Shown here piece after piece: positions 15,451 through 41,225 of a stretch of 64,000 nt of DNA. The DNA comes from Myxococcota bacterium (GTDB lineage: Bacteria; Myxococcota_A; UBA9160; UBA4427). The DNA is taken from assembly GCA_965250285.1 (NCBI GenBank), contig OZ252299.1, positions 4,320,001-4,384,000 of the forward strand, written 5' to 3'. The position numbers were made by a program, and so were the translations under genes. Within the stretch, counting starts at the first letter, position 1, and each line of letters begins with the position of its first letter. The notes under the pieces are model-generated. The model was not told where the DNA came from, did no database searches, and saw nothing but the letters and a program-made list of their open reading frames with translations.

Positions 15451-15584
15451 CGCGCCAGGGCCGGGGCAGGCGGGGGTACCGCGCGCAGTTTGCAGGCGCG
15501 ACGGGCGCAACATCCGAGCTCCCCTTCCGGCTCGCGCCGAGAATGTCTGAGCACGGTGCCCCCGCCTGCCCCGGCCCTGGCACG
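15451..15584. repeat. Structured palindromic element, copy C
   Basis: 28-bp inverted arms 15454-15481 and 15554-15581 (one T.G pair); inner stem GGCGCGA/TCGCGCC; shares motifs with the copies at 40.7-41.2 kb. Confidence 0.85.
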
Positions 15585-15610
15585 CGCGAAGCGAGACCTA
15601 CAGAGCCTCG

Positions 15611-17134
15611 CTAGGTGAAGAGCCGTCCGATCTTCGTTCCGAACAGGAACCGGATGAAGCCCTGCATCTGATCCTCTGACTTGCGCGTGTAGGGGTAGTT
15701 GCTCTGCCCCTTCTTGCCGATGACGATCGGATGGGGGTGCGTGTACCCGCGCAGGCCGACCTCGCCATTCACCTGCCCGACCCCCGAGCTCTTGACCCCG
15801 CCGAACGGGGCCTCGGGAATGCCGTACGTCACGGCCATGTCGTTCACGCAGACGCCCCCGGTCTCCATCTTCTCGGCGATTCGGGCGCCCTTCTCGAGAT
15901 CGCGCGTCCAGACGTTGCCATCGAGGCCGTACTCGCTGTCGTTCGCCAGCGCGAGCGCTTCGTCTTCGTCGCGCACCTTCTGAATCGCCAGGATCGGCCC
16001 GAAGGTCTCCTCGCGCATCAGTGCCATGTCGTGGTCGACGTCGACGACGACCGTCGGTTGAAAGTAGAGACCCTGCAGATCGGGGTTGCGGGCGCCCCCC
16101 ACGAGCACCTGGGCGCCGCGATCGACGGCGTCCTCCATGTGGCGCTCGATGATGTCCATCTGCTTGTCCCAGAAGACCGCACCGACATCACACTCGCCGG
16201 TATCGCTCTGGCGCAGTGCCTTCGTCTGTTCGACGACGCGTTCGAGGAACGCGTCGTAGACGCTCTCGACGACGTAGATGCGCTCGGTGCCGCAGCAGTA
16301 GTGGCCCGTGTTCATACACGAGCCCATGACGGCGCCCTTCGCCGCGACGTCGAGATCGGCGTCGGCACACACGATCATCGCGTCCTTGCCGCCGAGCTCG
16401 AGGGTCACGGGGATCAGCCGCTCTCCGCACGCGGCCGCGACCTTGCGACCCGTCGCGGCGCTGCCCGTGAACGAGATCTTGTCGACGCCGGCGGCGATCA
16501 GATCGGCGCCGGTCTGGCCGTCCCCGCGCACCACCTGATAGAGACCCTCGGGCAGACCCGCCTCGCGGACGAGCGACTCGATCAGGAGCGCCGAGAGCGG
16601 CGTCACCTCGCTCGGCTTGTGCACCACGGCGTTGCCCGCCATGAGCGCCTGCACCATCGGGTTCATGGCCAGGACGACGGGGCCGTTCCAGGGCGTGATC
16701 AGCCCGACGACGCCGAGCGGCTTGTAGACGAGCTTGACCTTCTTGGCGAGGCCCATGAGCCCGGCCGGTCGACGCACCGTCGGGGCGAGCATCTTCTTCG
16801 CGCGCTTGGCGTAGTACGAGATCGCGGCGCAAGGTGAGAAGACCTCCATCGCGATCGCCTCACTGCGCGCCTTGCCCGTCTCCTTCACGACGATGTCGAC
16901 GATCTCGTCCTGACGCGCGACGACGCGGTCGACGAGCCGCCACATGATCTCGGCGCGCTCGTCGAACGAACGCTGCGCCCACTCGGCCTGGGCCTTGCGC
17001 GCTCGATCGACCGCCGCGACGACTTCATCCTTCGTCGCGGCATCGAAGTCGCCGATCGGCTCGAAGGTCACCGGGCTCTTCACTTGATAGCGGCGACGAC
17101 CGGCGTCAGAGGGGATCGATTCGAAGATGGCCAT
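15611..17134 (-). CDS. Aldehyde dehydrogenase family protein
   Basis: ITPWN, KPSE, FTGS, LELGGKD, catalytic Cys region GHYCCG, EETFGP, FGGVKSSG. Confidence 0.96.
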   Translation of the reverse strand: MAIFESIPSDAGRRRYQVKSPVTFEPIGDFDAATKDEVVAAVDRARKAQAEWAQRSFDERAEIMWRLVDRVVARQDEIVDIVVKETGKARSEAIAMEVFSPCAAISYYAKRAKKMLAPTVRRPAGLMGLAKKVKLVYKPLGVVGLITPWNGPVVLAMNPMVQALMAGNAVVHKPSEVTPLSALLIESLVREAGLPEGLYQVVRGDGQTGADLIAAGVDKISFTGSAATGRKVAAACGERLIPVTLELGGKDAMIVCADADLDVAAKGAVMGSCMNTGHYCCGTERIYVVESVYDAFLERVVEQTKALRQSDTGECDVGAVFWDKQMDIIERHMEDAVDRGAQVLVGGARNPDLQGLYFQPTVVVDVDHDMALMREETFGPILAIQKVRDEDEALALANDSEYGLDGNVWTRDLEKGARIAEKMETGGVCVNDMAVTYGIPEAPFGGVKSSGVGQVNGEVGLRGYTHPHPIVIGKKGQSNYPYTRKSEDQMQGFIRFLFGTKIGRLFT

Positions 17135-17218
17135 GAGAGAATCTCACCTGGGAAGCCGAACGCTTCCGAATGGGGTGGGCGTGATGCGCAGCGTTCGAGG
17201 CAGGGTAGCCTTCCCCTC

Positions 17219-18244
17219 ATGACCGATCACGCCGCCACCCCGCCCCCCGTGCATGCCGCCCTGCGCATCAACATGACGGGCCTGCAGCCCGACCCGCGCG
17301 CCGAGTCGGAGCGCTACCGAGCCGCCATCGAAATGGCGGTGTACGCCGAAGAGAACGGCTTCGACACGGTCAACCTCGAAGAGCACCACTGCGCCGACAA
17401 CGGCTGGCTGCCCTCTCCCCTCGTACTCGCAGCGATGATCATCGCGCGCACGAAGCGGGTGCGCGTGAGCGTCACCGCACTGCTCGCGACGCTCTACGAC
17501 CCGATCCGCCTCGCCGAAGACGTCGCGGTGCTCGATCTCGTGAGCGAGGGGCGCTTCACGTTCACGGCCGGCCTCGGGTACCGACCGATCGAATACCACG
17601 CGACCGGCAAGCGCTGGGACGAGCGCGGCCGGCTCATGGACGAGCTCATCGAAACCCTGCTGACGGCGTGGAAGGGCGAGCCGTTCGAGTACCGCGGTGA
17701 GACGATCCGCGTGACGCCGACGCCGATGACGAAGCCGCACCCGCTCTTCCTCGTCGGTGGCATGAGCAAGGTCGCGGCGCGGCGAGCCGCTCGCTTCGGC
17801 TTGCCCTTCTATCCTCCGCAGCACCAGCCCGAGCTCGAGCGCTTCTACTACGCCGAGCTCGAGAAGCACGGCAAGCAGGGGTTCTATCTGCATCCCGGCG
17901 AGGGCAACTCGATGCTCGTCGTCGAGCCCGACCCCGAGCGGGCCTGGCAGGAGCTTGCGCCCTACTACCTGCGCGAGCTGCAGGAGTACGGAAGCTGGAA
18001 GGTCGAGGGCGTACCGCGACCGAGCGAAGAGCACGTCGAATCGATCGAAGAGCTGCGCGCACAGAAGCGCTTCGAGATCTTCTCGCCCGAAGACGCGCTC
18101 GACGAGCTCGCGAGCGGGCGACGGCCGACGGCCGTGCTGCATCCACTCGCGGGCGGCGTCCCGCTCGAGCGGGCGTGGCGACAGCTCGAGACGTTCAGTA
18201 CCGACGTACTCGCGCCGGTGCGACGCGGCGACGTGGCGGTCTAG
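17219..18244 (+). CDS. LLM class flavin-dependent oxidoreductase
   Basis: EEHH..WLPSP, DPIRLAEDVAVLD..SEGR, GLGYR; start moved to ATG 17219. Confidence 0.93.
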   Translation: MTDHAATPPPVHAALRINMTGLQPDPRAESERYRAAIEMAVYAEENGFDTVNLEEHHCADNGWLPSPLVLAAMIIARTKRVRVSVTALLATLYDPIRLAEDVAVLDLVSEGRFTFTAGLGYRPIEYHATGKRWDERGRLMDELIETLLTAWKGEPFEYRGETIRVTPTPMTKPHPLFLVGGMSKVAARRAARFGLPFYPPQHQPELERFYYAELEKHGKQGFYLHPGEGNSMLVVEPDPERAWQELAPYYLRELQEYGSWKVEGVPRPSEEHVESIEELRAQKRFEIFSPEDALDELASGRRPTAVLHPLAGGVPLERAWRQLETFSTDVLAPVRRGDVAV

Positions 18245-18246
18245 TC

Positions 18247-18900
18247 GTGGCGGAGACATTCGTCGGTATCGACGTCAGCCGGCGTCGAGGTTCGGCCGTG
18301 GCCGCCCTCGACGAAGCCGGGCGCATCTTCGAAGCACGCTGGATCGAGCCCGACGCCGATCTGCGCACCGAGATGCTCGGCCTCGTCGACCGATACGAGC
18401 AGCCGACGTTCGGCATCGACAGCCCGCGCTGTCCGCTCGAGCAGCCGCGCGACTGGTACTGGACGCGCGACCGCTGGACGCGGCGCAGCGATCAGGAGGG
18501 CTGGGGTCGACACTGCGAGGTCGTCGTGAGCGCCCACCGCCTCGCCCGGCCCCAGTGGACCCCGCACGGCTCGCAAGCGCCCGAGTGGATGCAGATCGGG
18601 TTCGAGATGTTTCGCAGCCTCGACGGCCGCGCGCCCGCGCACGAGGTCTTCCCGTCGGCGGCCTACACGCTGCTCGATGGCGACACGAGCGCCCGATTCG
18701 ACCTCTCGCTCGACGGGTTCCGTCGCAACCCCAAGGACATGCTCGACGCGGCAGTCGCCGCGCTCAGCGTCCGAGAGTTCGCAACGGGGCGCGGCTGCGA
18801 GGTCGGGGGCGGGGACGGACTCGGCACGATCGTGCTGCCCCGCCCGATCCCGAGCCCGATCGAAGCCGTCCTCAGCTGGCCCGAACGCGCCGGCGCCTAG
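18247..18900 (+). CDS. DUF429-like predicted nuclease (RNase H fold)
   Basis: FVGIDVS, GIDSP, HEVFPSA, DMLDA acidic motifs; GTG 2 nt after the LLM stop. Confidence 0.75.
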   Translation: MAETFVGIDVSRRRGSAVAALDEAGRIFEARWIEPDADLRTEMLGLVDRYEQPTFGIDSPRCPLEQPRDWYWTRDRWTRRSDQEGWGRHCEVVVSAHRLARPQWTPHGSQAPEWMQIGFEMFRSLDGRAPAHEVFPSAAYTLLDGDTSARFDLSLDGFRRNPKDMLDAAVAALSVREFATGRGCEVGGGDGLGTIVLPRPIPSPIEAVLSWPERAGA

Positions 18901-20315
18901 CGCGCAGCGTGCACGACGCCCTGGGCAGCCGCCTCGAGCGCTTCGAGGGCGACCGGGATCCCGTCCGCGATCGCCTGGGCGTCTTCGACCAGATCGGGGT
19001 CGACCAGAAAACCGAAGTCGATTCGATCCATGTACGACACCGCCGTCACGTTGAGGCCATTGCCCACCTGCAGAATCGACATCGGGTACATCGCGTCGAC
19101 CTTCGCGCCGGCCATGTAGACGGGCACCGGAAGACCGCGCACGTTCGAGAAGACGAAGTTCCCCGGCAACGGGACGTAGTCGAGCGCCAGACCGCTCGCC
19201 GACATCAGCCACTGGATCGCGTTCGGCGAGAGCACCTCGCCGACGGCGCTCATCAGATCGAATCCGCCCCGCGACACCTTCCTCTTGGCGTGCGCGGCGC
19301 TGCGATGAATCGACTTGAGTCGCTGGGCAGGGTCGGCCAGGTGCGTCGCGATCGACACCGACATCGTGCCGATCTGATTGTCGAGCGTCTTGTCGCCCGC
19401 CTCGCGGCGCGAAACCGGGCAGCACGCCACGAGCGAGTCCTGCGGCAGCGCGCCGCGTTCGCGCATCGACCGACGCAGCGAAGCCCCGACGAGCTCGAGC
19501 AGGACGTCATTCACCGTGACGTCGAAGTGCTTCTTGAGCTCGCGCACCGACTCGAGGGAGACCGAGGCCGACGCGAAGCCGCGCCGCGGCCCGACGCCCT
19601 CGTTGAACTCGGCGCGCGGCACCTCTGCCGACCGCGGTGCATACCGGGTCGACGGGTCACCGAGCCACTGCTCGCCGAGCGACTTCAGTGCGCTGACGCC
19701 GTGGTCGAAGAGCTTGCCCGAGCGTGTGATCGCGTTCTTCGCGGCGCGGGCCACGATCTCGTTGGCCGCCGGCGCCGCCGGAGCGTGCTCCTGCATCTCG
19801 ACCGGGATCAGCGGCTGGTCGGCATCGGGGGTGAGATCCATGAGGATCTCGGCGAGCCCGACGCCGCCTTCCCCGTCGAGCAGGCAGTGGTGCATCTTGA
19901 TCAGCATCGCGACACGGCCGTCGGCCAGGCCCTCGATCCACCACGCCTCCCAGAGCGGGCGCGAGCGATCGAGCGGGCGCGCGTGGAGCAACCCCGCCAT
20001 GTCGTGGAGATCGCGCAGCGTGCCGTCGCCCGCCAGCGCGATCCGGTGGATGTGGGATCGCGGGACGAAGTCGGCATCTTCGACGAAGTACGGGCGGTCG
20101 AGACCGAAGGGCACCTCGAGCAGCTTCCAGCCGAAGCGTGGCACCAGCGAGATGCGATCCTCGATGCGGGCGACCATCCGCTCGAAGCCGAAGCCGTCGA
20201 CATCGCGGCCATCGATGATCGTGAGGCCGCCGATGTGGCTGGGGGCGCGGTCGCTCTCGACGGCGACGAAGATCGCATCCCCGTCGGCGAGCTGGTGGAT
20301 GTGTCTCTCGTTCAT
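18897..20315 (-). CDS. Wax ester/triacylglycerol synthase family O-acyltransferase
   Basis: LDRSRPLWE, KMHHCLLDG, TVNDV, SNVRG; start ATG 20315. Confidence 0.95.
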   Translation of the reverse strand: MNERHIHQLADGDAIFVAVESDRAPSHIGGLTIIDGRDVDGFGFERMVARIEDRISLVPRFGWKLLEVPFGLDRPYFVEDADFVPRSHIHRIALAGDGTLRDLHDMAGLLHARPLDRSRPLWEAWWIEGLADGRVAMLIKMHHCLLDGEGGVGLAEILMDLTPDADQPLIPVEMQEHAPAAPAANEIVARAAKNAITRSGKLFDHGVSALKSLGEQWLGDPSTRYAPRSAEVPRAEFNEGVGPRRGFASASVSLESVRELKKHFDVTVNDVLLELVGASLRRSMRERGALPQDSLVACCPVSRREAGDKTLDNQIGTMSVSIATHLADPAQRLKSIHRSAAHAKRKVSRGGFDLMSAVGEVLSPNAIQWLMSASGLALDYVPLPGNFVFSNVRGLPVPVYMAGAKVDAMYPMSILQVGNGLNVTAVSYMDRIDFGFLVDPDLVEDAQAIADGIPVALEALEAAAQGVVHAAR

Positions 20316-20490
20316 GACGTGTTCTTTTCTTCCGTCTCGAGATCGCGCCGGGCCCGGGTCCCATCGGGCGCGCGATGCTCGAATTGCGAGGTCACCGGCA
20401 GTGTGTGCACCTCGAGTGACGACACAAGCACGATGGCGAGGCGTCTTCGAAGCAACACGATTCGGCGCTCGAATCGAGGCGGGGCAAACC

Positions 20491-20505
20491 GCAGATGCGG
20501 TGCCA
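20491..20505 (-). promoter_or_regulatory. Putative sigma-54 promoter upstream of wax ester synthase
   Basis: Minus strand reads TGGCACCGCATCTGC: GG-N10-GC spacing, one mismatch to TGGCAC-N5-TTGC, about 175 nt upstream of the start. Confidence 0.45.
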
Positions 20506-20787
20506 CTTGATTTCGACCACGTGTGTGAGACATCCACCGGGGCGCCGGCAGCGCTCGTTCGGATCCTCCAGTCCCGACGTTCGTCGGGTACCGGGGTTCC
20601 ATCCCCGACCGCGAGGACGCGGCCTGACTCGGGGAACGGCGCGCAGTGTATAGACCGACGCTGCCCGCGCAAGCGCTCGAAGCGCGCCGCGCCGTCACAT
20701 CATGGTTTCAACACGGCGCCTGCAGATTGTGCGGTGCACCTCGAAGCGCTGCGCTGAGCGAGAGTCGCGGGCAGAGGGGGTCGCCCC

Positions 20788-21996
20788 TCAATGTCGACGA
20801 TCGGCGCAACGAACTGCGGCGCCGCCAATGCGCGCGATCCGGGCGTCACCGAAGGGTGTCCCGACGCCGCTGTTGACGGTGAGCGCAACCGACAATTCGC
20901 GATCTGGATCGGCCCACGCCCCCGAGCCGCCGAACCCGAAGTGGCCGAAGCCCCGCGGAACGCGCCCGCGCGTCGTGAAGACACGGTGGTAGCCGAGTCG
21001 AAAGTGCATCGGCACCGGGATCACCCGGCCCATGCCCCGGTTCTGCACCGTGCCCATGGCCTGCACGGTTTCGGGCGACAGCAGCCGCACACCGTCGAGC
21101 TCGCCACCGGCCGCGAGACAGGCGTAGAGGCGCGCGAGCGACCGGGCCGTGAACAGACCGTTGGCCGCCGGCACCGACGCCGAGCGGTATTCGGCCGAGT
21201 TCATGTCGAGCAACGCCATGCCCTGGGGCGAAAGGGCTCGCATCGCTTCTCTCGGGTCGTAGGAGACGCCCACCCGGCGCAGCCGTCGGGCCCAGCGGTC
21301 GGCCCCCGCCCGCATCCGCTCGAGACGCCGCACCCGCTCGGCGTCGGTGCCCTCGAGCATCGATGACATCAGCTTCGCGACCCGGTGGTGCTCGCTGTCG
21401 GGCGCGCCGCAATAGAGCCCGTCGAGCCCCAGCGGTCGGGCGAGCTCACGCTCGATCAGCTCGGCGAAGGGCTTCCCACCCAGCAGGCGCCTTGCCAGCT
21501 CGCCCACGAGCCAGCCGTACGTCAGCGCGTGATAGCCGTGGGCGGTACCGGGCTCGTAGCGGGGCTCGCTCTCGGCGAGGCGACGCGTCACGAGATCCCA
21601 GTCGAGCATGTCGCTCGGCGCGTCGACGATCCCCTCGGCCGAGTGCAGGCCGGCTTCGTGGCACATCAGCTGTCGCACCGTGATCGCCTGCTTGCCGGCC
21701 TGGCCGAACTCGGGCCAGACCTCGGCGACCGGTGTGTCGTACGCGACCAGGCCCCGGTCGGCGCAGACGTGCAGCAGCGTCGACGCGACCCCCTTCGTCG
21801 TCGAGAATGAGAGGCTCAGCGTGTCTTCCTGCCAGGGCGTGCCTTCGGGGTCCTTCGTGCCGCCCCAGGCGTCGACGACCTTCTCGCCGCGGTGATACAC
21901 GCAGACCGCTGCGCCCCCGGGCCCGGTCTTCGGAACGATGCGCCGCAGCATCGTCGCGACGCCGGCAAAGTCGGGATGAATCTGACCTTCGAGCAC
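20788..21996 (-). CDS. Serine hydrolase (beta-lactamase class C / esterase family VIII)
   Basis: FSTTKG (SxxK), GYHALTYG, FGHFGFGGS; GTG start 21996 after GAGGAG. Confidence 0.93.
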   Translation of the reverse strand: MLEGQIHPDFAGVATMLRRIVPKTGPGGAAVCVYHRGEKVVDAWGGTKDPEGTPWQEDTLSLSFSTTKGVASTLLHVCADRGLVAYDTPVAEVWPEFGQAGKQAITVRQLMCHEAGLHSAEGIVDAPSDMLDWDLVTRRLAESEPRYEPGTAHGYHALTYGWLVGELARRLLGGKPFAELIERELARPLGLDGLYCGAPDSEHHRVAKLMSSMLEGTDAERVRRLERMRAGADRWARRLRRVGVSYDPREAMRALSPQGMALLDMNSAEYRSASVPAANGLFTARSLARLYACLAAGGELDGVRLLSPETVQAMGTVQNRGMGRVIPVPMHFRLGYHRVFTTRGRVPRGFGHFGFGGSGAWADPDRELSVALTVNSGVGTPFGDARIARIGGAAVRCADRRH

Positions 21997-22042
21997 GCTG
22001 CTCTCCTCGCTCTGGTTCCGGACGCGCGGCGCGAGCCGCGCT

Positions 22043-23230
22043 TCAGGCGCTGGCGCTGGCGACGATCCCCGAGCCCGCGAGCTTCGCGATTTCGTCGGGT
22101 GCGTAGCCGAGCTCGCCGAGGATCTCTTCGGTGTGTTCGCCGAGCAGCGGGGCGGGGCGGCGAATCTCGCTCGGTGTGCCGTCCATGCGCTCGGGGGGGC
22201 GCGTCTGGCGCACGAGACCGACGACCGGGTGCTCGTCTTCGACGACGATCCCGTTCTCGATGACCTGCGGATGCAGGTGGACGTCGTCCCTCGTGAGCAC
22301 GGGCGCGCATGGCACGTCGGCGTCATCGAGCACTTTGAGCCAGTGCGCACTCGGCCGGGTCGCGATGACGGCCGACATCATGTCGAGCCGCTCCTTCGCG
22401 TGGCGGACGAGCCCGGCCGTATCCTGGAATCGGTCGTCCTCGAGCCACTCGGGCTTCTCGGCGGCCTCGCAAAAGGCGACCCACTCGCGGTGCGCCACCG
22501 TCGAGATCATGATGTGGCCGTCGGCGGTGGCGTAGACCAGATCGCGGCGCGCGACCGGCTTCGCCTTCGGCAGATCGGGCGAGACGAACGTGTGATACGC
22601 CATGCCTTCGGGCCAGACGAACGACAGCACCGAGTCGAGCATCGACAGCTCGATGTGCTGACCGACTCCGGTGCGTTCGCGGGCCAGCAGCGCGGCCGTG
22701 ATCGCCTGCGCCGCGGTCAACGCCGTGACCTTGTCGGGGACGATCACACGCACGAGCCGCGGTCGATCGGTGCCGAAGCCCTGGATCTCGGCCAGCGTCG
22801 ACATGCCCTGGATCAGCGGGTCGTAGACCCGCTTGTGCGCATAGGGCCCGCTCGCACCGAATCCGCTGATCGAGACGTAGACCAGACGCGGGTTCAGGCC
22901 GCGCAGGCGCTCCGGGCCGTAGCCCATGCGTTCGGCCGCGCCGGGCCGGCTGTTCTGGATGAACACGTCGGCTCCCTCGACCAGGCGGTCGAGCACGTCG
23001 TGCGCGCCCTCCTTCTTGAGGTCGAGCACGACCGAGCGCTTGCTGCGGTTGATGGTGGTGAAGGTCGGGGCGAGGCCGCGCAGGCCGCCCATGTGCCGCA
23101 GCGTGTCGCCCCGCGGTGGCTCGACCTTGATCACGTCCGCGCCCTGGTCGCCCAGGATGCGCGTGGCGAGCGGCCCCGAGATCACCTGGGTCGCGTCGAT
23201 GATGCGGAAGCCGTCGAGTGCGCCTGCCAC
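22043..23230 (-). CDS. CoA-transferase family III (CaiB/BaiF)
   Basis: [38 protein letters not shown]. Confidence 0.95.
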
Positions 23231-23278
23231 GTTCGATCCTCGCGTGAGGGGCGGCCGGGCGGACGCGCGCGTCTCGCC

Positions 23279-30010: not shown

Positions 30011-30115
30011 GCAAGGTCCCCCCGACCCGATTTCGACACCACGCAGGCGAAGAAGGTGCCGATGTGCCTGCCTCCGCACGAACGGCGGCGCCGTGTGCGA
30101 GTGCCTTGCCCGGCT

Positions 30116-31918: not shown

Positions 31919-32944
31919 ATGGAAACCAGCGAGACCCGCGACCGCGTCGACCGCGCCCTGGCCCGCATCCACGCCCACGCCGACGAGGACGACCGGGGGT
32001 TCACCAGCCACGCCCCGATGGTGGTCGACGCGCTGGTCGCGCTCGACCGAGCCGACCGCATCGAGCCCTTCCTCGATGCCTACCTGCCGGCCTTCGCCGA
32101 GATCGACCCGGCGCGTGACCCCGTCGAAGCGGCGGCCCGGACCTGGATCGAAGCGCACGGGGCGGCCGATGACTGGGCCACCGTGCTCGACGCCGAGCTG
32201 CGGTCGCTCGCGCCGAGTGTCTTTTCGGCGGCGACGCACGGGCTGATTCGCGCGGCCCACGCCACCCGCATGCTCGCCGAGCACGACAACGCAGTGCGCC
32301 GCCACGAGCTCGCCCGCGCGCTCGCCTACTGGCGCGCCACCGAAGCGAGCCTGCCCGGCGAGCCAGGCTCGGCGGCCGAGCCCGACCTCACCGCCGACCG
32401 ATTGATCGCCGACCTCGTGGTCGTGCCCAACGAACAGCGCAACTTCGGGCTCTTCACCGAGGGCGTGAAGGTACTGCCGGAGCATGCCCCCTTCGGCGAG
32501 ACGGTTTCGCGCCTCGTCGTGCCCGATCGCGTCGACGGCGACGGCGTGTCGGCGCTCACGCGCGCGATGCTCGGTCCCTACTTCGAGAGCCCGCTCCTGC
32601 GGATCGCGTACGTCCATACCATCACCGCGCCCAGCTCGATTCGGCTCGTCGCACCGCACGTATCGCAGACGACGCTGCGCGCGCTGTATCGCTACGGCGT
32701 GCAGTCGGTGGCGGCGCTGCATGCGATCTCGAAGCTGCCGACCGACACGACCGTCGACGACGAGGTGCGTGTGCTCGCCGGCGACGTCGAGGCACTCGCG
32801 AGCCGGGCGGCCGACACCCTCGAGGAGCACGTCATCAAGTTCACCGAGGCGTGCCTGCGCGAACGCGCCGCGAGCGGCGACGCGCGCTTCCTGCTGGCCG
32901 CAGCCGATGCGACGGTGGCGGAGGAGCGACGCGCAGCCGCATGA
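31919..32944 (+). CDS. Questin oxidase family (DUF4243-like) protein
   Basis: FTSHAPM, AATHGLIRAAH, ELARALAYW, VHTITAP, EEHVIKFTEAC. Confidence 0.75.
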   Translation: METSETRDRVDRALARIHAHADEDDRGFTSHAPMVVDALVALDRADRIEPFLDAYLPAFAEIDPARDPVEAAARTWIEAHGAADDWATVLDAELRSLAPSVFSAATHGLIRAAHATRMLAEHDNAVRRHELARALAYWRATEASLPGEPGSAAEPDLTADRLIADLVVVPNEQRNFGLFTEGVKVLPEHAPFGETVSRLVVPDRVDGDGVSALTRAMLGPYFESPLLRIAYVHTITAPSSIRLVAPHVSQTTLRALYRYGVQSVAALHAISKLPTDTTVDDEVRVLAGDVEALASRAADTLEEHVIKFTEACLRERAASGDARFLLAAADATVAEERRAAA

Positions 32945-32963
32945 TGACTCGACGCGCCTCGGG

Positions 32964-34073
32964 TCAGTCGCGCGGAATCTCCGCGACCGGTACGACGCGC
33001 ACGTTCGGCTCGGGATAGCCGTCGGTCAGCACGTAGCGCAGCGCCATCGTGCCGTGGCGGTGACCGGCGGTGTCGATCCAGTTTTCGACGCCGCCCGGAT
33101 CCTCGTGCGCCACGACCAGCCGGAACGATCCGTCTTCGCGGTACTTCGCCTGGCCGCTGTTGACGTGCACGTTGCGGAAGTCGTAGTCGAGGCTCTCGGC
33201 CCAGATGTTGCCCAGCTGGAAGTTCCAGTAGTGGCAGTTCGGCGGCGTCGTCTCGATGACGAGCGCCTCTTCGGGGCCGAGCTCCCAGCGACCGAGGAAC
33301 ATCCGAATGTTGGGGTCGCCGCCCATCACCCGGTGCTTCTCTTCGTCGGGCAGATGGAAGTCGTTCTTCGGCGCCTTCTCGAGGAACTCGGTGACCCAAT
33401 CGGCGAACCAGACCGAGGCGCCGATCGCGTAGAGCGCCCCACCGAGCAGCATGCCGGGTACGCGCTCGGGCTCGAGCGGCGGCGGCGGGCCCTCGCTCTC
33501 GAGGCACTCGATCTCGAGGTCGACCTGCTGCTCGCGCTCGCGGTGCAGGAACGTCTGGCGCACGAGGATCTGTTTGGTCTGATCGGTCATGCGCAGCCAG
33601 TTGCCGTCGTGCTCCTTCGTGCTCGCGATGATCTCGAAGGTGCCGTCGTCGTTCAGCTCGAGCTCGCTCGCGTTCAGATGGCCGGCGCCCCCCGTGATCT
33701 TGTCCTTCGCGGCGAAGTTCTGATTCTGCGCGGCGAAGCTCAGGTAGTGGATCGTGCGGCGATGACCACGAATCCGATACGTGTACTGCGGGCTCACCGA
33801 CGCGCTGACGTAGTAGTTGTCGGGGTTGTCGAGGCCGAGCTTCACGCCCTCGGGCATCTTGCGAAACTTCGGGTTCTCCATGGTCGAGAGCTCACCGAAG
33901 CTGAACAGCCCGGCCCGAAGCAGGCGCGCGAGGTAGCGGTGCCCCTCGCCCCGGTCGAATGCGTCGGTCTCGAGGTCTTCGCGCAGCAACACCTGGCCGG
34001 CCTGCTTGAGCAGATCACAGAACTCGTTCCAGGCCTCGCCGCTCATCACCTTGTCGACTGCTTCGTTGGACAT
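32964..34073 (-). CDS. DUF1214 domain-containing protein
   Basis: GLDNPDNYY, DDGTFEI, YWNFQL.N.W.ESLDY, VAHEDPG..NWIDTAGH; start ATG 34073. Confidence 0.85.
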   Translation of the reverse strand: MSNEAVDKVMSGEAWNEFCDLLKQAGQVLLREDLETDAFDRGEGHRYLARLLRAGLFSFGELSTMENPKFRKMPEGVKLGLDNPDNYYVSASVSPQYTYRIRGHRRTIHYLSFAAQNQNFAAKDKITGGAGHLNASELELNDDGTFEIIASTKEHDGNWLRMTDQTKQILVRQTFLHREREQQVDLEIECLESEGPPPPLEPERVPGMLLGGALYAIGASVWFADWVTEFLEKAPKNDFHLPDEEKHRVMGGDPNIRMFLGRWELGPEEALVIETTPPNCHYWNFQLGNIWAESLDYDFRNVHVNSGQAKYREDGSFRLVVAHEDPGGVENWIDTAGHRHGTMALRYVLTDGYPEPNVRVVPVAEIPRD

Positions 34074-34336
34074 CGGGTTTCTCCGCGCGCATGGCGCCAG
34101 GGGTGAGGCGCTCACGCGCCGGGCCTTCGAGCATCGCGAAAACACTTCGCGCGATCAAACGTGCACATCCGACACGGTGCGCGATTCTGTCGCGTCCCCT
34201 GCCGATCCCGAGCGATCCGCGTCCGCGTTCGGTACCCGAGCCCCCGGCCTGCATGCAGGGCGCACGCTGCGGCGAACCGGGCCGCGGGATGCGCTACTCG
34301 TGCCGATGAGGCGACGCCTTCCAGGAGAAGCAATCC

Positions 34337-34822
34337 ATGTCCGTGACGATCTTGCTCATGATCCTCGCCGTGGTGCTCGTGCTGGTGGGTCTCGGCGGAC
34401 TCATGCTGCCGGCCTTGCCGGGCGCACCGTTCGTCTTCGCCGGCCTCTTCGTCGCCGCCTGGGCCGAGCATTTCGAGTACGTCGGGACCGGCACGCTCGT
34501 CGCGCTCGCGGTGCTGGCCGTGCTGACGTACGCCGCCGACTTCGTCGCGGGCGCATTCGGCGCCAAGAAGTTCGGCGCGTCGAGGAAGGCGATGGTGGGC
34601 GCCATGCTCGGCGCGGTGGGCGGGCTCTTCTTCGGGCTGCCCGGGATCGTGCTGGGGCCCTTCGTCGGCGCGGTGATCGGTGAGTACATGGAGCACCCGG
34701 ACATCTTCAAGGCGGGCCACGCCGGTCTCGGCGCGACGCTCGGCCTGGCTCTCGGCATCGCGGCCAAGATGTCGCTCGCCTTCACGATGATCGGCATCTA
34801 CCTCTTCATGCGCTTCTTCTGA
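34337..34822 (+). CDS. DUF456 family membrane protein
   Basis: LPALPG, GAKKFGAS, GPFVGAVIGE; AGGAG RBS. Confidence 0.9.
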   Translation: MSVTILLMILAVVLVLVGLGGLMLPALPGAPFVFAGLFVAAWAEHFEYVGTGTLVALAVLAVLTYAADFVAGAFGAKKFGASRKAMVGAMLGAVGGLFFGLPGIVLGPFVGAVIGEYMEHPDIFKAGHAGLGATLGLALGIAAKMSLAFTMIGIYLFMRFF

Positions 34823-34859
34823 GACGACGGCGTCGCGCAGAAGGCATTCCAACGACTTG

Positions 34860-34935
34860 TTTTCAATGAACTTTCCGGAAACCGCACGCGATCGCCCAAT
34901 ATTTAGAAACTTTTGATATCTTCTAAACATCGAAT
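34860..34935. promoter_or_regulatory. AT-rich arsR promoter/operator region
   Basis: Sharp AT-rich island with inverted repeat TTTAGAA(34902-34908)-N12-TTCTAAA(34921-34927), just upstream of arsR. Confidence 0.6.
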
Positions 34936-34974
34936 CGACAGCAAGCCAGCTGCGAGACCAGAAAGGAGGCCGCC

Positions 34975-35325
34975 ATGCCCCAGCCCGCCATGCAGAAGCA
35001 GGACGCCCTGGCCGCACTCGCCGCCCTCGCCCACGAGACCCGACTCGACGTGTTTCGGCTGCTCGTGCAGGCGGGACCAGAAGGGCTCGCCGCCGGCGAG
35101 ATCGCCGAGCGGCTGGGGGTTCAGGCGGCCACGCTCAGCCACCACCTGAAGGAGCTCAAGAGCGCTCGGGTGGTGCACTGCCGGCGCGAGGGCCGGTCGT
35201 TGATCTACTCGCCCGACTTCACCGCCATGGGCGATCTCGTCGGTTACCTGAGTGAGAACTGCTGCGCAGAAGGCGGCTGCCATCCAGGCCCCGGCGGCGC
35301 GTCGATCGTCCAAGACCGCGGCTGA
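34975..35325 (+). CDS. arsR: ArsR/SmtB family metalloregulator
   Basis: ALAALAHETRLDVFRLLVQAGPEG, TLSHHLKEL, C-terminal ENCCAEGGC; AGGAGG RBS. Confidence 0.92.
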   Translation: MPQPAMQKQDALAALAALAHETRLDVFRLLVQAGPEGLAAGEIAERLGVQAATLSHHLKELKSARVVHCRREGRSLIYSPDFTAMGDLVGYLSENCCAEGGCHPGPGGASIVQDRG

Positions 35326-35407
35326 TCCGTCGGCTGCTCGGCGCCGAGACCGATCTCGAACGAACCCAAGAACGCAGGACCAAGAACGAAACAGAGGAGA
35401 TACCCAG

Positions 35408-35851
35408 ATGCGACTCCAACTCGCTCTCAACGTGCGCGATCTCGACGAAGCCGTCGGGTTCTATTCGAAGCTCTTCGGCACGTCCCCTAACAAGACGAAG
35501 CCCGGCTACGCCAACTTCGCCATCGAAGAGCCCCCGCTGAAGCTGGTGCTCTTCGAGTCGCCCGACGCCGACGAGCGCCTCAATCACCTCGGCGTCGAGG
35601 TGTTCGAGGATGAGCAGGTCGACGAGGCGACCGAGCGTCTGCGCTCTGCGGGCCTGGCCGACCTCGTCGAAGACGAGACCACCTGCTGCTACGCCAAGGC
35701 GAACAAGGTGTGGGCTCAGGAGCCCCAGGGGCTGCGCTGGGAGTTCTACAAGGTGCTCGAAGACTCGGAGACCTTCGGCCGCGACCCGGAGATTCCCGCG
35801 GACGCCCGAATGGCCGCCGGAGACGGATCGGAGATCGGATGCTGCTCGTAG
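35408..35851 (+). CDS. arsI: ArsI/CadI family C-As lyase-like VOC metalloenzyme
   Basis: MRLQLALNV, FYSKLF, GYANF, LNHLG, TCCYA vicinal Cys, RWEFY, terminal GCCS. Confidence 0.85.
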   Translation: MRLQLALNVRDLDEAVGFYSKLFGTSPNKTKPGYANFAIEEPPLKLVLFESPDADERLNHLGVEVFEDEQVDEATERLRSAGLADLVEDETTCCYAKANKVWAQEPQGLRWEFYKVLEDSETFGRDPEIPADARMAAGDGSEIGCCS

Positions 35852-36147
35852 TCGCTGGCGACGTCGAAATCGATCCGTCGAACCGAGACGCCGCCATCGA
35901 GGCGGCGCGCAAGGTCATGGCCGCGACCCGCGAGGAGCCCGGCTGTCTCGAGTACACGATCTCGGCCGACGTCGACGATCCCGGGCGCTTCGTCATCCTC
36001 GAGCGCTGGGCGTCGCCCGAGGCACTCGAGGCCCACTTCGCGACCCCGCACATGGCCGAGTTCCAGGCGGCCATGGGCGGTCTGGGCGTGCGGCGGGTCG
36101 ACGTGAAGCGCTACGACGTCGCTCAGGAGGGCCCAGTGAGGGGCTGA
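35839..36147 (+). CDS. Putative quinol monooxygenase (ABM domain)
   Basis: TREEPGCLEY, ERW, AHFATPH; overlaps arsI by 13 nt. Confidence 0.88.
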   Translation: MLLVVAGDVEIDPSNRDAAIEAARKVMAATREEPGCLEYTISADVDDPGRFVILERWASPEALEAHFATPHMAEFQAAMGGLGVRRVDVKRYDVAQEGPVRG

Positions 36148-36313
36148 GGCCCCGCTTCTGCTGCCGCCTCCGCGCGCCTCGCCGTCGCGCAGGCCGGGGG
36201 CAGCTCTCGACCTAAGGTCGTGAATCTCCTGCGCCGATAAGAGGACGGCACGGTGCGGCCCCGCTCAGCGGGCCGCGCCCGTGCCCTTCTTCTGATCACG
36301 CGCGAGGGACGAC

Positions 36314-37774
36314 ATGACCTGTACGCCGCGAACCCACGCCGGCTCTCTCCATACCCACACGCTGCGCCTCGTCGCATGGGCGGTCCTCGCGACCGCGATC
36401 GGCTGCGGCGGGGGCGGCGATACCTCGAACCCCGCGAAGCCCCAGCTCGGCGTGAACTCCGACCAGGAAGGCCTGACTTCGTGGGGCCAGGCCCAACGCG
36501 CCCAGGACGATCGCGGCGAGATCGTGCCCGGCTTCGCCAACGCATGGGATCTGGCGCGCGACTTCGCCATCGACACCGGCGGCAACGCGCAGTTCAACGG
36601 CGCGCTCGTGCTCGAAGTCGACGGCACCCCCTTCCCCGCCGATCTGAACTACGACGACCTGCAGTTCATGACGCCGGTCTTCGGCACCGCAGATGGCCTG
36701 GTCGCGGGGGTCGTCTACGACGGCACCATCAGCGGCTTCCCGACGGGCGCGGGCACCTACTCACTCGCGATCGCACCGACGCAGAGCTCACGCATCCAGC
36801 AGAACATCGACCTCAGCAACGCGGTCGCACCGATCACGCTGGCCTTCGCAGCGCTTCCGCTGGTCGAGGAGAGCGCCTTCGCCGACGAAGACGGCTGGGT
36901 CCGGGTTGCGATCAAGAACACGGCCAACACGATCCTCCAGACGGTCTACTACCTCGACAACGACGGCACCGAGATCGGCAGCTTTGCAGCCAACCTCGAC
37001 GCCTACGCGGGTCAGGTCATCCGTCTGGCCGTCGAGGCCCGCTCGACCCCCGATTCGTCGCTGCTCTTCGACGACTTCTCGATTCTCGACAGCGATCTCA
37101 CCGAGTACGTCACGAACGGCGATTTCGAGCGCGGTGATCTGGCCGGTTGGTCTCGCGGCACGCCCGCTTTCGTTCGAAACGTCACGACACCGTCGCGCAC
37201 CGTCGAGGGGCTCGACGTCACGCGATCGTTCTACGCGACGCCGAACTCGGACTGGGCGCGCATGGTCGACGTCTTCACCAACTCGTCGGGCGCTCCGGTC
37301 GATCGCACGATCGGCTACCTCGTGACGCTCGATGCGGGCGGCGAGGGCATCATCTACGGCGCAGACTCGACCGGAACGATCTACCCCTACGACATGGAGA
37401 ACGACGCGGCGCAGGCGGTGAGCGCATGGGACAGCGTCGCAGGCGGCATCCGCAACATCGGTTGGGCCTTCGGCGACGCGGACAACGTCAGCTGGGAATC
37501 GGACGATGCCCTCGGCGTGTCGGGCAACGGCGACGACAACATCCTCGTCGAGTTCGACATCACCGTGCCGGCGGGCGAGAGCGTCGCCCTGGCCCACTTC
37601 GTCGTGCTCGACACGACGAACACCGGCAACACGGCCACCGCTCTCAGCGATCAGTCGCCCTCGGTCGACACCGACCTGCAGGCGATCCTGAATGGCTGGC
37701 CCGCCGACGGCGTCGTCAACACCTACACGAGCGGCCTCACCCAGGGCCAGATCGATGCCGTCGTGAACTTCTGA
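36314..37774 (+). CDS. Uncharacterised secreted lipoprotein, beta-rich
   Basis: Signal ending LATAIGC-GGGG; strong GC3 codon bias; YVTNGDFERGDLAGW (CBM-like opener). Confidence 0.8.
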   Translation: MTCTPRTHAGSLHTHTLRLVAWAVLATAIGCGGGGDTSNPAKPQLGVNSDQEGLTSWGQAQRAQDDRGEIVPGFANAWDLARDFAIDTGGNAQFNGALVLEVDGTPFPADLNYDDLQFMTPVFGTADGLVAGVVYDGTISGFPTGAGTYSLAIAPTQSSRIQQNIDLSNAVAPITLAFAALPLVEESAFADEDGWVRVAIKNTANTILQTVYYLDNDGTEIGSFAANLDAYAGQVIRLAVEARSTPDSSLLFDDFSILDSDLTEYVTNGDFERGDLAGWSRGTPAFVRNVTTPSRTVEGLDVTRSFYATPNSDWARMVDVFTNSSGAPVDRTIGYLVTLDAGGEGIIYGADSTGTIYPYDMENDAAQAVSAWDSVAGGIRNIGWAFGDADNVSWESDDALGVSGNGDDNILVEFDITVPAGESVALAHFVVLDTTNTGNTATALSDQSPSVDTDLQAILNGWPADGVVNTYTSGLTQGQIDAVVNF

Positions 37775-37947
37775 CGGCACGCAGCGAGTGCAGAGCCGGT
37801 GGCGCAGATCACCATCGCGCGCCCAAACGTGACCTGCGACACGCTGCGGTGACGACTCTCGGCGCTTCGGGTCACGGGTGACCTGAAGCGGCCGCTGCGT
37901 CTAGCCGATGCATCGGGGAACGGGCCCGCGGGCCAGGAGGACCCTCG

Positions 37948-38277
37948 ATGAAGACCTTCGAACGCTACCGGCGCCGCATGACGTGCGAGCTCATCGTGGA
38001 GGGCTCGCGTCACGGCGGTCTGATCACCGACCTCTCGGCGAGCGGTCTCTTCGTGCGCACCAAGCACACGTCGCGCGCGGGCGATCGCGTGCGCATCGTG
38101 CTGCACCAGGAAGAAGGCGAGCTCGAGATCGACGCCCGTGTCGTACGCGAGCATCGCATGAGTCGCCACCACACGACCGGCACGCCCAGCGGCATCGGCG
38201 TCAGCATCATGTCGGCGCCCGAGGGCTACTTCCACATGCTCGGGCGGCTCATGAGCGAAACGCGCCCGACCGCCTGA
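37948..38277 (+). CDS. PilZ domain protein
   Basis: ERYRRR, DLSASGLFV, ARVVR, GIGV; AGGAGG RBS. Confidence 0.8.
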   Translation: MKTFERYRRRMTCELIVEGSRHGGLITDLSASGLFVRTKHTSRAGDRVRIVLHQEEGELEIDARVVREHRMSRHHTTGTPSGIGVSIMSAPEGYFHMLGRLMSETRPTA

Positions 38278-38324
38278 CCGCCTGACCCTGCCCGCAGCCC
38301 GGGCGACGTGCCCGGACCGGCTTG

Positions 38325-39449
38325 CTAGGCCGCGCGGTCGACCTCGAGCGGCGCCAGATCGATGCCGTAGAGATCGGCGACGTTCTCGCACAGAATTCCG
38401 CGCCGCTGCTCATCCGTCAGGTGCGCGCCATGCTCGGCGAGCATGTCCTGACTCCACGGCCACGTCGAGTCACTGTGAGGGAAGTCGTTGGCCCAGAGCA
38501 GACGCCGCCAGTTCATCAGGTCGGCGACCTTGAAGGCCACCCAGTCATCCTGGAAGGTCGTGTAGATGTGCTCCGAGAAGTACTCGCTCGGCAGCTTCGA
38601 GAGCGCCTGACCGGCCGGCAGCCAGTTGTGATGCCGCTTGTAGGCGTGATCCATCCGATACATGTAGTGGGGCACCCAGCCGGCATCGGCCTCGACACAT
38701 ACGACCTTCAGGTCGGGATTGCGCTCGAAGACGCCGCCGAGCACGAGCGTCCCCATGATGTCCTGGCAGCCGCGGATGATCGACAGGAACCCGTTCATCG
38801 CCGGTCCGCGCACGGGCGCCGTCTCTCGCGTCGTGAGGATGTGAAACGAGAGTGGCAGCTCGAGCTCGATCGCCTTCTGCCAGAACGGGTCGTAGACCGG
38901 GGAGTGGTAGTCCTCGACCGCCGGGTTGCCCGGCATCATCACGCCGCGCAGCCCGAGATCCTTGATCGCCTGTAGATCGCGGAGGCCATCCTCGACCGAC
39001 CGCATCGCGGTCTGGCCGCAGCCGAGCAGGCGGTCGGGATGCGCCGAGCAGTACTCGGCGATCCAGCGGTTGTACGCCTCGAAGCACGCCTGCTTATAGT
39101 CGAAGTCCTTGTGATTGCAGAGCACCATGCCGACGGTCGGGTAGATGACCTCAGCGGCGACGCCATCGCGCACCTGATCGGCCATGCGCGCCTCCGGGTC
39201 CCAGCCGCCCCGATGCAGATCCTCGAAGTTCGAGCCGGTGACCCGAATCTCCTCGGGCTTCTTGCCTGCGGCGGCGACGAGACCGAGCGGAACGGGCTTG
39301 TCCATGCCGTCGACGACGAAGAAGTCGCCTGCATCGCCGAGCCGTTCGATGCGCGGCGCCTTGTCCTTCCACTTGGCGTCGATGCGACTGGTGTAGGTGT
39401 CACCCGGCTCGGTGATGTGGGAGTCGGCGGAGATGATCGGGTACGACAT
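38325..39449 (-). CDS. Amidohydrolase family protein (Amidohydro_2)
   Basis: ISADSH, YPT, YNRW, SFH, VEADAGW, NDFPHSDSTWP; start ATG 39449. Confidence 0.95.
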   Translation of the reverse strand: MSYPIISADSHITEPGDTYTSRIDAKWKDKAPRIERLGDAGDFFVVDGMDKPVPLGLVAAAGKKPEEIRVTGSNFEDLHRGGWDPEARMADQVRDGVAAEVIYPTVGMVLCNHKDFDYKQACFEAYNRWIAEYCSAHPDRLLGCGQTAMRSVEDGLRDLQAIKDLGLRGVMMPGNPAVEDYHSPVYDPFWQKAIELELPLSFHILTTRETAPVRGPAMNGFLSIIRGCQDIMGTLVLGGVFERNPDLKVVCVEADAGWVPHYMYRMDHAYKRHHNWLPAGQALSKLPSEYFSEHIYTTFQDDWVAFKVADLMNWRRLLWANDFPHSDSTWPWSQDMLAEHGAHLTDEQRRGILCENVADLYGIDLAPLEVDRAA

Positions 39450-39505
39450 GGCGGGCTCCTCGCTGGCGGATCGTTCGGACCGACTGGGGGCGATTGGGGC
39501 CAGTC

Positions 39506-40645
39506 TCAGGTGCGCATGTGGCGCATGCAGGTGCGCACCTCGTCGACGAAGGTCTCGGGCTGCTCGAACGCGGCGAAGTGACCGCCCTTCTCGAGCTGGT
39601 TGTAGTGCACGAGCTTCGGAAAGCGCGCCTGACACCAGCGCTCGCTGCTGCGGAAGATTTCCTTCGGGAAGATGCTGCAGCCGACCTTGACGTTGACCGG
39701 ATCGAACGGCGGCGTGTTGAAGCTCTCCCAGTAGAGGCGTGCCGAGGACGCCCCCGTCGCGGGCAGCCAGTACATCATGACGTTGTCGAGCAGCTCGTCC
39801 TTCGTGAGCACGTTCTCGGGGTGGCCGTCGCAGTCCATCCAGCTCCAGAACTTCTCGACGACCCACGCCATCTGGCCGACCGGCGAATCGACGAGGCCGT
39901 AGCCGAGCGTCTGCGGCCGGGTGCTCTGCTGCTTCGAGTAACCGCTGTCCCACTGGTTGTAGTGGTTCATCCCCTCCATGGCGCCCTGCTCGAACTCGGT
40001 CAGGTTGTCGAGCGAATCGGGCGTCGGCGGCGCGATCGGCATGTTCAGATGGATGCCCGCGCAGCCGTCCTCGTCTTGCGCGCCCACGCACGTCGTGACC
40101 ATCGCGCCCCAGTCTCCACCCTGGGCGACGTATCGCTCGTAGCCGAGCTTGCGCATGAGCGCGCCCCAGGTATCGGCGATGCGTCCGACCCCCCAGCCCG
40201 TCTCGGTCGGCTTGTCACTGAAGCCGTAGCCCGGCAGCGAGGGGCACACGACGTGGAACGCATCCTCGGCCTTGCCGCCATGCGCGACCGGATCGGTCAG
40301 CGGACCGATCACCTTGTGAAACTCGACGATCGAGCCCGGCCAACCGTGCGTCATCACCATGGGCAGCGCGTTCGCCTCGGGCGAGCGCACGTGAATGAAG
40401 TGCACGCCCAGACCGTCGACCTCGGTCTTGAACTGCGCGAACTCGTTCAGGTGCGCCTCGCGCGCGCGCCAGTCGTACTTCTCGGCCCAGTAGCTCGCGA
40501 GCTCCTGCACGTACGAGAGCGGAATCCCCTGAGACCAGTCGTCGACCGTCTCTTCATTGGGCCAACGCGTCGCCTGGATCCGCCGACGCAGATCGTCGAG
40601 TTCTTCGTCGGTCGCTTCGATTCGAAAGGGAGTGATGTCGCTCAT
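39506..40645 (-). CDS. Epoxide hydrolase (microsomal/EHN type)
   Basis: HGWPGS, PSLPGYGFS, QGGDWG, DSPVG, GGHFAAFEQP. Confidence 0.96.
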   Translation of the reverse strand: MSDITPFRIEATDEELDDLRRRIQATRWPNEETVDDWSQGIPLSYVQELASYWAEKYDWRAREAHLNEFAQFKTEVDGLGVHFIHVRSPEANALPMVMTHGWPGSIVEFHKVIGPLTDPVAHGGKAEDAFHVVCPSLPGYGFSDKPTETGWGVGRIADTWGALMRKLGYERYVAQGGDWGAMVTTCVGAQDEDGCAGIHLNMPIAPPTPDSLDNLTEFEQGAMEGMNHYNQWDSGYSKQQSTRPQTLGYGLVDSPVGQMAWVVEKFWSWMDCDGHPENVLTKDELLDNVMMYWLPATGASSARLYWESFNTPPFDPVNVKVGCSIFPKEIFRSSERWCQARFPKLVHYNQLEKGGHFAAFEQPETFVDEVRTCMRHMRT

Positions 40646-40742
40646 GGGGGGCTCCGGGGTGGGTGGGTCGGGAGGGGGATAGTCTCGATGAATCTGAGAC
40701 TGGAGTCCAGCCGGGCGTGGGGCGGTTGGTTTGGGGGTGGGG

Positions 40743-40878
40743 TCGGGTTTTCGGGGGTGTCGTCCTCAGATTCCGGCGGGCGGGCTTTACGAGGTTGCAC
40801 GGCTTTCGCATGGAGCGCGGGGTGGTGCAGCTTTGGGCGCCCGCCTTCAACTTGCGGGCGCCACCCCCGAAAACCCGA
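40743..40878. repeat. Structured palindromic element, copy A
   Basis: Terminal inverted repeats TCGGGTTTTCGGGGGTGTCG / CGCCACCCCCGAAAACCCGA; its reverse complement aligns end to end with copy B. Confidence 0.9.
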
Positions 40879-41016
40879 AGGGATGGTTTCCCCCATTTTC
40901 TTTGTTGCGGAGGGGCCCTCGGCCTTTTGGGCCTCGTGCCCGGTGCTTGGCGGCAGGTCCTCGACAAGGTCGCTGAGTCGAGCAGCAACGAACGCAACGG
41001 GGGCTTTGCAAGAACC

Positions 41017-41070
41017 GCTCGCCGCGGCCGCAGGCCGCGGCGAGCCCCGCCCCAACAAGCACGGCGGGGC
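41017..41070. repeat. Two GC hairpins in the spacer between copies A and B
   Basis: Perfect 13-bp stem GCTCGCCGCGGCC-GCA-GGCCGCGGCGAGC (41017-41045) and 8-bp stem GCCCCGCC..GGCGGGGC (41044-41070). Confidence 0.75.
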
Positions 41071-41091
41071 AGGCCGATCGGTCAACCCCCT

Positions 41092-41225
41092 CGCGTTTTC
41101 GGGGGTGGCGCCCGCAAGTTGGAGGCGAGCGCCGAAGCCGACTCATCGCGACGTTCCAACCAAACGCGGCGCGATCCCGTAAGGCCAGCTCGCCGGAATC
41201 TGAGGACGCCACCCCCGAAAACGCG
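41092..41225. repeat. Structured palindromic element, copy B (inverted relative to A)
   Basis: Perfect 19-bp terminal inverted repeats CGCGTTTTCGGGGGTGGCG / CGCCACCCCCGAAAACGCG. Confidence 0.9.

Follow-up and report, generated by a model that had tools for sequence, protein, structure and literature searches.

The closest described counterparts of the element examined here are the repetitive extragenic palindromes (REPs) of bacterial chromosomes, the bacterial interspersed mosaic elements (BIMEs) and REPINs into which they combine, and the associated TnpA-REP (RAYT) enzymes. Within a 64,000-nucleotide (nt) stretch of a Myxococcota genome (assembly GCA_965250285.1, contig OZ252299.1, positions 4,320,001 to 4,384,000 of the forward strand; hereafter the window), an initial annotation had noticed three structured non-coding elements, designated A, B and C. 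These belong to a dispersed hairpin family that shares several features with REPs: it is extragenic and multicopy, occurs both as single copies and as inverted doublets of mixed subtype, clusters locally and appears to be recognized on one strand via a conserved irregularity of its stem (PMC6006769, PMC8266576). It differs from them in size, the hairpins being ~105-135 nt long with loops of up to ~50 nt, as against 21-65 nt and 2-5 nt in REPs (PMC6006769). It differs further in having a core that is exact across phyla while the stems are free, and in displaying neither a GTAG/GTGG foot nor a detectable REPtron.

The family is multicopy and intergenic, with compensatory stem changes, strand-asymmetric mismatches, inverted doublets and tandem arrays; it is variably present at orthologous sites, and one subfamily is carried in IS5 elements. 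It behaves like REP/BIME elements, yet is not a member by the tests that define them, and it is apparently undescribed. We tentatively prefer, with somewhat less than even confidence, to see it as a dispersed non-coding single-stranded DNA (ssDNA) hairpin whose core is read by a protein and which spreads in a REP/BIME-like, nick-primed fashion with the enzyme supplied from elsewhere.

Two subfamilies built on one hairpin core

The source genome (G000; one contig of 6.25 Mb, 68.6% GC, 95% complete) contains 63 copies recovered by BLAST and nhmmer, rather than the three first counted, and with the matches in relatives and metagenomes described below the family survives the check for further copies that had been proposed for it. 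They fall into two subfamilies: the C-type, named for copy C, with 38 copies at 28 sites (20 single, seven tandem pairs and one array of four), and the B-type, represented by copies A and B, with 25 sites, one of which is a fused partial copy. The two do not find each other by BLAST or nhmmer, are misaligned by MAFFT and have only the core architecture in common. All 63 copies are intergenic according to the rough in-house gene calls on which the gene positions in this genome rest. A group of 13 of the 25 B-type sites lies inside 88 kb of housekeeping genes with no transposase there, resembling the local spread of REPs described near a recent REPtron (PMC8266576). At G000:C1:5242320-5242528 two overlapping B-type copies are fused head to head, the core of one lying in the loop of the other.

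Both types form one long rod. An outer stem of 16-30 bp is followed by a C-G and a G-C pair, a C·A mismatch, two pairs, a G(N)A opposite GA and a short helix; beyond this the rod generally has another loop of the G(N)A/GA type before it continues into an inner stem of ~7 bp, and it ends in a free loop. The core is CC-G(S)A-AG opposite CT-GA-GG in the B-type and GC-G(C)A-GT opposite TY-GA-GC in the C-type, and its G·A oppositions are predicted to be sheared pairs. A strict test for the second G(N)A/GA motif, which was absent from the search pattern, was positive for 53 of the 101 distinct C-type cores; several lineages have a plain stem in its place. GNA-triloop mini-hairpins are also found in the loops and spacers of the elements; those upstream of B-type copies give no strand signal, five being on the folded strand and three on the other.

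Covariation is strong inside each subfamily. The 114 distinct C-type arm pairs average 13.4 Watson-Crick pairs out of 16, compared with 6.2 for arms swapped between copies, and 77% of them reach at least 13, as against 0.5% of the swapped arms. In an alignment of 36 B-type sequences (from the source genome and its relative G001, plus 10 metagenome copies, with long-loop, fused and the most diverged copies left out) 98.4% of the cells are paired, against 35-48% in slid controls, and 21 of 30 pairs have changed on both sides. The mismatches, for their part, are asymmetric between strands: G·T outnumbers A·C by 81 to 19 and G·A outnumbers T·C by 20 to 6 in 94 C-type stems, the corresponding figures in 36 B-type stems being 9 to 0 and 22 to 2 (related and thus not independent copies in both sets). 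Because of both excesses, the strand selected to fold is the one on which the hairpins were first read. The stem covariation within both subfamilies and the mismatch asymmetry support the proposal of selection on fold over sequence; part of the covariation originally pointed out between copies C and B, however, compared different subfamilies. The stems appear simply to present a fixed mismatched core.

Reading the sequence of the window bore out the coordinates, stems and mismatches of all three copies, and likewise the placement of copies B and C just past the stop of a minus-strand gene (~20 nt and ~27 nt away, respectively). As DNA they are more stable than shuffled sequences (z = -6.5 for C, -5.7 for B and -4.6 for A; none of 200 shuffles was equally stable), and they also fold far better than shuffles as RNA. 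The features are as follows (MITE, miniature inverted-repeat transposable element; ORF, open reading frame):

15427..15450, +, CTAG and IS5 terminal inverted repeat in the left flank of copy C, reading as an inverted MITE right end; the TAG at 15428-15430 within this CTAG terminates ORF 14918-15430 (+)
15451..15584, +, copy C, C-type hairpin, folded strand + (sequence reading and DNA folding)
15480..15490, +, C-type 5' core box CGCGCGCAGTT, exact in GTDB matches
15544..15555, +, C-type 3' core box TGTCTGAGCACG (sequence reading; GTDB matches)
15585..15614, +, degenerate IS5 right end terminated by CTAG, recognized by eye after failing the automated repeat match; the aldehyde dehydrogenase gene 15611-17134 (-) ends on the TAG stop at 15611-15613 inside this right flank
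40743..40878, -, copy A, B-type hairpin, folded strand - (sequence reading and folding)
40879..41091, no strand, spacer of the inverted A/B doublet, resembling the doublet spacer at 616 kb of the source genome and the orthologous gap of G001
41017..41045, +, small GCA-triloop hairpin in the A/B spacer, related hairpins precede four further B-type copies or doublets
41092..41225, +, copy B, B-type hairpin, folded strand + (sequence reading and folding)
41109-41118 and 41200-41208, +, core boxes of copy B, CGCCCGCAAG and CTGAGGACG respectively
41226..41242, +, 3' tail of copy B, of the CCC..GCAC type, facing the stop of the short-chain dehydrogenase gene 41245-42018 (-)

Copy A precedes the epoxide hydrolase gene 39506-40645 (-) by ~99 nt. 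Contigs from sequencing run X1 span A, the spacer and B with zero differences, and an empty allele was not seen among them.

IS5 carriage and wider distribution

The C-type copies of the source genome are flanked, as in IS5-family MITEs, by terminal repeats of ~17 bp, CTAG ends and transposase remnants, i.e. they sit in IS5 deletion derivatives. A right repeat is recognizable at 19 of the 28 sites and a left repeat also at 19; at 11 of the 19 right-repeat sites the CTAG is intact at the right end and includes the TAG stop of the neighbouring gene. Copy C is housed in such an IS5-derived MITE (window 15427-15614), whose CTAG ends supply the TAG stop codons of both convergent flanking genes; here and at G000:C1:3097908-3098041 the left flank is an inverted copy of the right end. 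The transposase remnant matches NF033581 (IS5 family, E 6e-8), for which the intact parent transposase scores 323 bits against a cut-off of 140; no intact DDE_Tnp_1 was found in the source genome. Intact 1.2-kb IS5 elements carry the hairpin in all six copies of the relative G111. When IS5 ends from 14 genomes were compared, the hairpin was located after the transposase stop and before the right repeat in G000, G111 and G127, whereas sister IS5 elements in 10 of the 14 are without it. A hairpin-less IS5 end in G154 was considered as an empty site and rejected: both feet of the element are kept, and it reads as a stem deletion.

Conversely, three C-like copies of the source genome, all of the B-type copies and those of Coriobacteriia have no IS5 ends. 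Because sister IS5 elements and non-IS5 copies separate the two, the hairpin is a passenger of IS5 and not an IS5 end. The suggestion of a MITE therefore applies only to the carrier of the C-type copies, not to the hairpin itself. The 3' end of an IS5 lineage acquired the hairpin, and this lineage dispersed C-type copies as MITEs into CTAG sites; a tree of 12 IS5 ends did not distinguish one capture from several.

Beyond the source genome, the pattern CGCGCGCAGTT-N45-75-TGTYYGAGCACG is estimated to occur in ~740 GTDB stretches, of which 112 loci were returned, from ~75 assemblies as counted by accession prefix. By record title the carriers include many Coriobacteriia and Myxococcota, and also Omnitrophota, Bdellovibrionota (Bdellovibrionales), Planctomycetota (Planctomycetales), Verrucomicrobiota, Opitutales and Spirochaetia; some of these titles are possibly misbinned, yet the copies on contigs of 34-47% GC have AT-rich stems of their own. 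Among the phyla the C-type stems are unrelated yet complementary and the core is exact, in DNA of 34-72% GC. Carriage is uneven: within the phylum of the source genome the pattern matches six of 301 genomes, only two of them in many copies, and in Coriobacteriia it matches 48 of 151, with a structured core in 41 by reading. The B-type is narrower, being found in G001 only among 30 relatives, and among its 125 metagenome matches 21 reach a stem of at least 13. At one orthologous gap in Eggerthellaceae the element is present in two of 23 genomes, in one of which it is doubled with a GCGAGTT variant.

Single loci show some further arrangements: L053 and L084 contain shortened versions of the element, nested or in tandem, that possess two 3' boxes, a copy at L144:284-386 lies directly downstream of an RNase P RNA gene, and one in L135 is near a match resembling a thiamine pyrophosphate (TPP) riboswitch.

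Candidate mode of spread

Under the preferred interpretation, the element would fold on one strand into a long rod when the DNA is single-stranded, and its stems would present the fixed core (helix, 1x1 mismatch, 2 bp, G(N)A opposite GA, helix, often twice) to a protein that reads it. By analogy with REPs, an HUH-type nuclease might nick in trans next to the hairpin, and fold-back synthesis from the resulting 3'-OH would yield inverted doublets and local copies; the nicking enzyme may have been lost from the source genome. Separately, an IS5 lineage captured the hairpin and spread the C-type copies as MITEs.

Inverted doublets have a preferred polarity, minus-then-plus, in all five inverted pairs of the source genome (A/B among them) and in eight of ten close pairs elsewhere, the doublets being at times of mixed subtype. 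The element favors convergent gaps, which hold 31 of the 47 sites in the source genome compared with 784 of its 4543 gaps overall. In its co-directional gaps the folded strand of single copies is antisense at eight sites and sense at four; at the 44 scorable loci among the 112 from other genomes it is antisense at 21 and sense at six, with 14 in convergent and three in divergent gaps. Thus, in most cases the folded strand is the antisense strand of the gene that ends next to it, and a motif of the 3' untranslated region (UTR) of that gene, one of the originally suggested roles, is therefore unlikely. Of the proposed hairpin of ssDNA or RNA recognized by a protein, the strand data favor the ssDNA form, and the version as RNA in a 3' UTR finds no support.

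A number of observations weigh against nick-primed spread by a REP-like enzyme. Profile searches (PF01797, NF047646) detected no Y1/RAYT gene in the 95% complete source genome, and PF01797 detected none in four of five related genomes chosen as carriers. None of 38 Y1 loci from carrier groups (a part of the carriers' Y1 loci) is flanked by the element, 14 of 41 Coriobacteriia carriers are without a Y1 match, and three RAYT-like genes that we inspected have their own, different repeats. The guide tetranucleotide GTAG/GTGG stands at the foot of one of 62 copies, in agreement with the absence of GTAG first noted. Clustering of the ORFs at 126 loci gave no gene family that recurs next to the element, and profiling of the neighbouring proteins (113 with Pfam, 24 with NCBIfam) yielded no candidate for a cognate enzyme. 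One orthologous copy, preceded by what is presumably a dUTPase gene, has been kept with compensatory stem changes in 14 genomes (14 of 20 fetched loci), and the site of A is occupied in G001 by a B-type copy of a different subtype; many copies are therefore old and stationary. A precise empty site was not found at orthologous loci, so that the comparison suggested by the initial annotation delivered presence and absence (two of the 23 gaps) without a clean insertion boundary. Finally, a conserved host reader would fit better, because the core is exact across phyla and REPs are species-specific (PMC6006769).

The REP/REPIN-like label accordingly holds for the dispersed, extragenic distribution and the inverted doublets, but not for the GTAG foot or a flanked RAYT; a search for flanking RAYT/TnpA came out negative, and as the substrate of an HUH enzyme the element is a candidate only. 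Regular-expression scans for GIY-YIG and HUH motifs in the proteins of the source genome found no cognate enzyme. In Coriobacteriia, Y1 genes are present in 27 of 41 carriers and in 23 of 110 non-carriers, a comparison confounded by kinship, and after dropping 15 close kin in 12 of 26 carriers against the same 23 of 110. The three inspected RAYT-like Y1 genes of this class (L193, L194 and L196; 260-271 amino acids) have inverted repeats of their own on either side, 35-56 nt in length and lacking GTAG; their subclass, here assigned by motif only, is reported to lack REPs.

An exact 23-base core across several phyla, with free stems and no adjacent cognate enzyme, is unlike the species-specific REPs with their one RAYT, and the pattern points to a reader of folded ssDNA that is either broadly conserved or broadly mobile. 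With its natural stem variants the family offers a ready set of substrates, including in the cultured carriers Collinsella stercoris and Adlercreutzia species, and an IS5 lineage is seen here capturing such a signal in its 3' end. The main texts of the literature contained no description of the family that we could find, in keeping with the initial impression that it was not a described one; a similar motif outside Rfam may exist in supplements (e.g. that of PMC5737381) or in more recent motif surveys.

Alternative readings of the hairpin

Of the alternatives, we regard as unlikely, but as the most serious, the one in which the core is a host-read single-strand priming signal of the primosome-assembly-site (pas; PriA) kind, with the repeats as dispersed restart or priming signals and the doublets as pairs of them on opposite strands. 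The F-G hairpin of phiX174 has CC-GA-AG opposite CT-GA-GG after a 1x1 mismatch, which is the B-type core minus one base, and ColE1 has GAGC-GTA-GCGAGT ~140 nt past its origin region (one match, 0.09 expected); we take both positions to be those of mapped pas sites. The AAGCGG hexamer, a feature of n'-pas and ssi sites, is absent from the window copies A, B and C, these three having been read directly. A pas is a PriA-bound hairpin, located in ColE1 downstream of the origin (PMC5778457, PMC3167613). These hairpins and those at Vibrio inovirus origins share with our element tandem G·A between short helices, a near-identical local sequence and GNA mini-hairpins, whereas our element differs in the extra base between G and A, the long flanking stems and its chromosomal dispersal.

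In viral sequences the closed-loop form TGTTTGAGC-N3-5-GCGAGTT accounts for 36 of 123 matches, as against ~12 if loop lengths were even (related phages not being collapsed), and the nine viral closed-loop matches with a stem below are all short-loop. This form is situated near inovirus-type replication origins: in three inovirus-like contigs it occurs just past a hairpin ~450 nt before a Rep_trans gene, a stretch that also matches CTXphi records; open GCGAGTT variants in Coriobacteriia bridge the open and closed forms. However, the CTX ori(+) of 167 bp has several stem-loops (PMC4439123), so that Rep, instead, may be what the phage motif serves. Searches of viral contigs did not recover the open form (no matches; with stems, 0 of 9 and 0 of 120), nor did those of plasmids, which gave short chance matches only. 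The homologous F-G hairpins of two phiX174 relatives, phages ID2 and ID18, are fully paired at this point without G·A pairs, and the segment 30-70 kb of the F plasmid has no match. Nor did a preference for the lagging-strand template or any other replication-strand rule emerge (C-type 14 of 28, B-type 3 of 14 on that template; mixed in three Coriobacteriia genomes), and tandem G·A is a generically stable motif to which convergence is easy. A more far-reaching form of this idea, which we hold to be rather doubtful, is that of mobile primosome-loading hairpins: an inside-out version of the phage and plasmid priming signal, residing in the chromosomes of several phyla, copied by host replication proteins alone and captured by insertion sequences as an aid to replication or repair.

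Closed-loop cores also cap long rods in unrelated viral or proviral contigs (L211, L216, L236, L237, L243, L246, L250, L272 and L293), in L211 within an element bearing terminal inverted repeats. In two inovirus-like contigs (L205, L239) the origin-like hairpin is closely preceded by GACTGAGGACG, the same sequence as the 3' box of the B-type.

It is comparably doubtful that the element works as RNA, e.g. as an antisense or 3'-end structure to which a protein or nuclease binds. In favor of this, RNA of either strand gives a stable fold, G·U tolerance as well as tandem G·A would suit an RNA, the copies keep close to stop codons and to convergent gaps, and the strand that folds in IS5 has the sense orientation and follows directly on the transposase stop. 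Against this stand the antisense excess in co-directional gaps reported above, the lack of a terminator or promoter pattern at A/B, and the GNA triloops, which favor DNA, such hairpins being much more stable as DNA than as RNA (PMC13037366). The Rfam search called for at the outset also speaks against an RNA, as no family reached the gathering threshold: the window had no matches, 20 loci had none on the elements, and 12 loci gave weak miRNA-type matches far below the cut-off. Consensus sequences of hammerhead, hairpin-ribozyme and kink-turn motifs, compared by eye, did not fit either.

That the hairpin is a functionless IS5 relic, its arms kept complementary by template-switch correction of quasi-palindromes, is highly improbable and, for the family as a whole, largely refuted. 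The repeats retained at 19 C-type sites on either side agree with it, and the symmetrized left flanks at copy C and at 3,097,908 of the source genome show that arm-to-arm copying occurs. Yet correction would erase the very mid-stem mismatches that are kept across phyla and across 34-72% GC, would not yield an excess of G·T over A·C, and would leave unexplained the B-type and Coriobacteriia copies without IS5 ends as well as the hairpin-free IS5 elements in 10 of 14 genomes.

An atypical attC-like site for a tyrosine recombinase is the least credible reading: the structure conserved over sequence, variable stems, fixed unpaired bases, strand-specific folding and similar length are attC traits, the source genome encodes an integron integrase, and the B-type leans to the leading-strand template (11 of 14, p = 0.057), but RYYYAAC..GTTRRRY is found in none of the 63 copies (which also upholds the reported lack of attC AAC/GTT ends), the neighbours are housekeeping genes in mixed orientation instead of cassette arrays, there is no direct-repeat array of the element near intI, and the attC array that the genome does possess (24 sites seen) is unrelated to the element, no copy of which lies closer to it than 41.8 kb. 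That chromosomal integron (G000:C1:5462834-5479900) encodes an IntI that exceeds the TIGR02249 cut-off; behind it come at least 24 attC sites, each ~131 nt long and often only 400-500 nt apart, in an array that extends beyond the scanned range. Elsewhere in the source genome (G000:C1:2161589-2161683) there is a short tandem repeat of ~38 nt with inverted parts, which is unrelated to the hairpin family.

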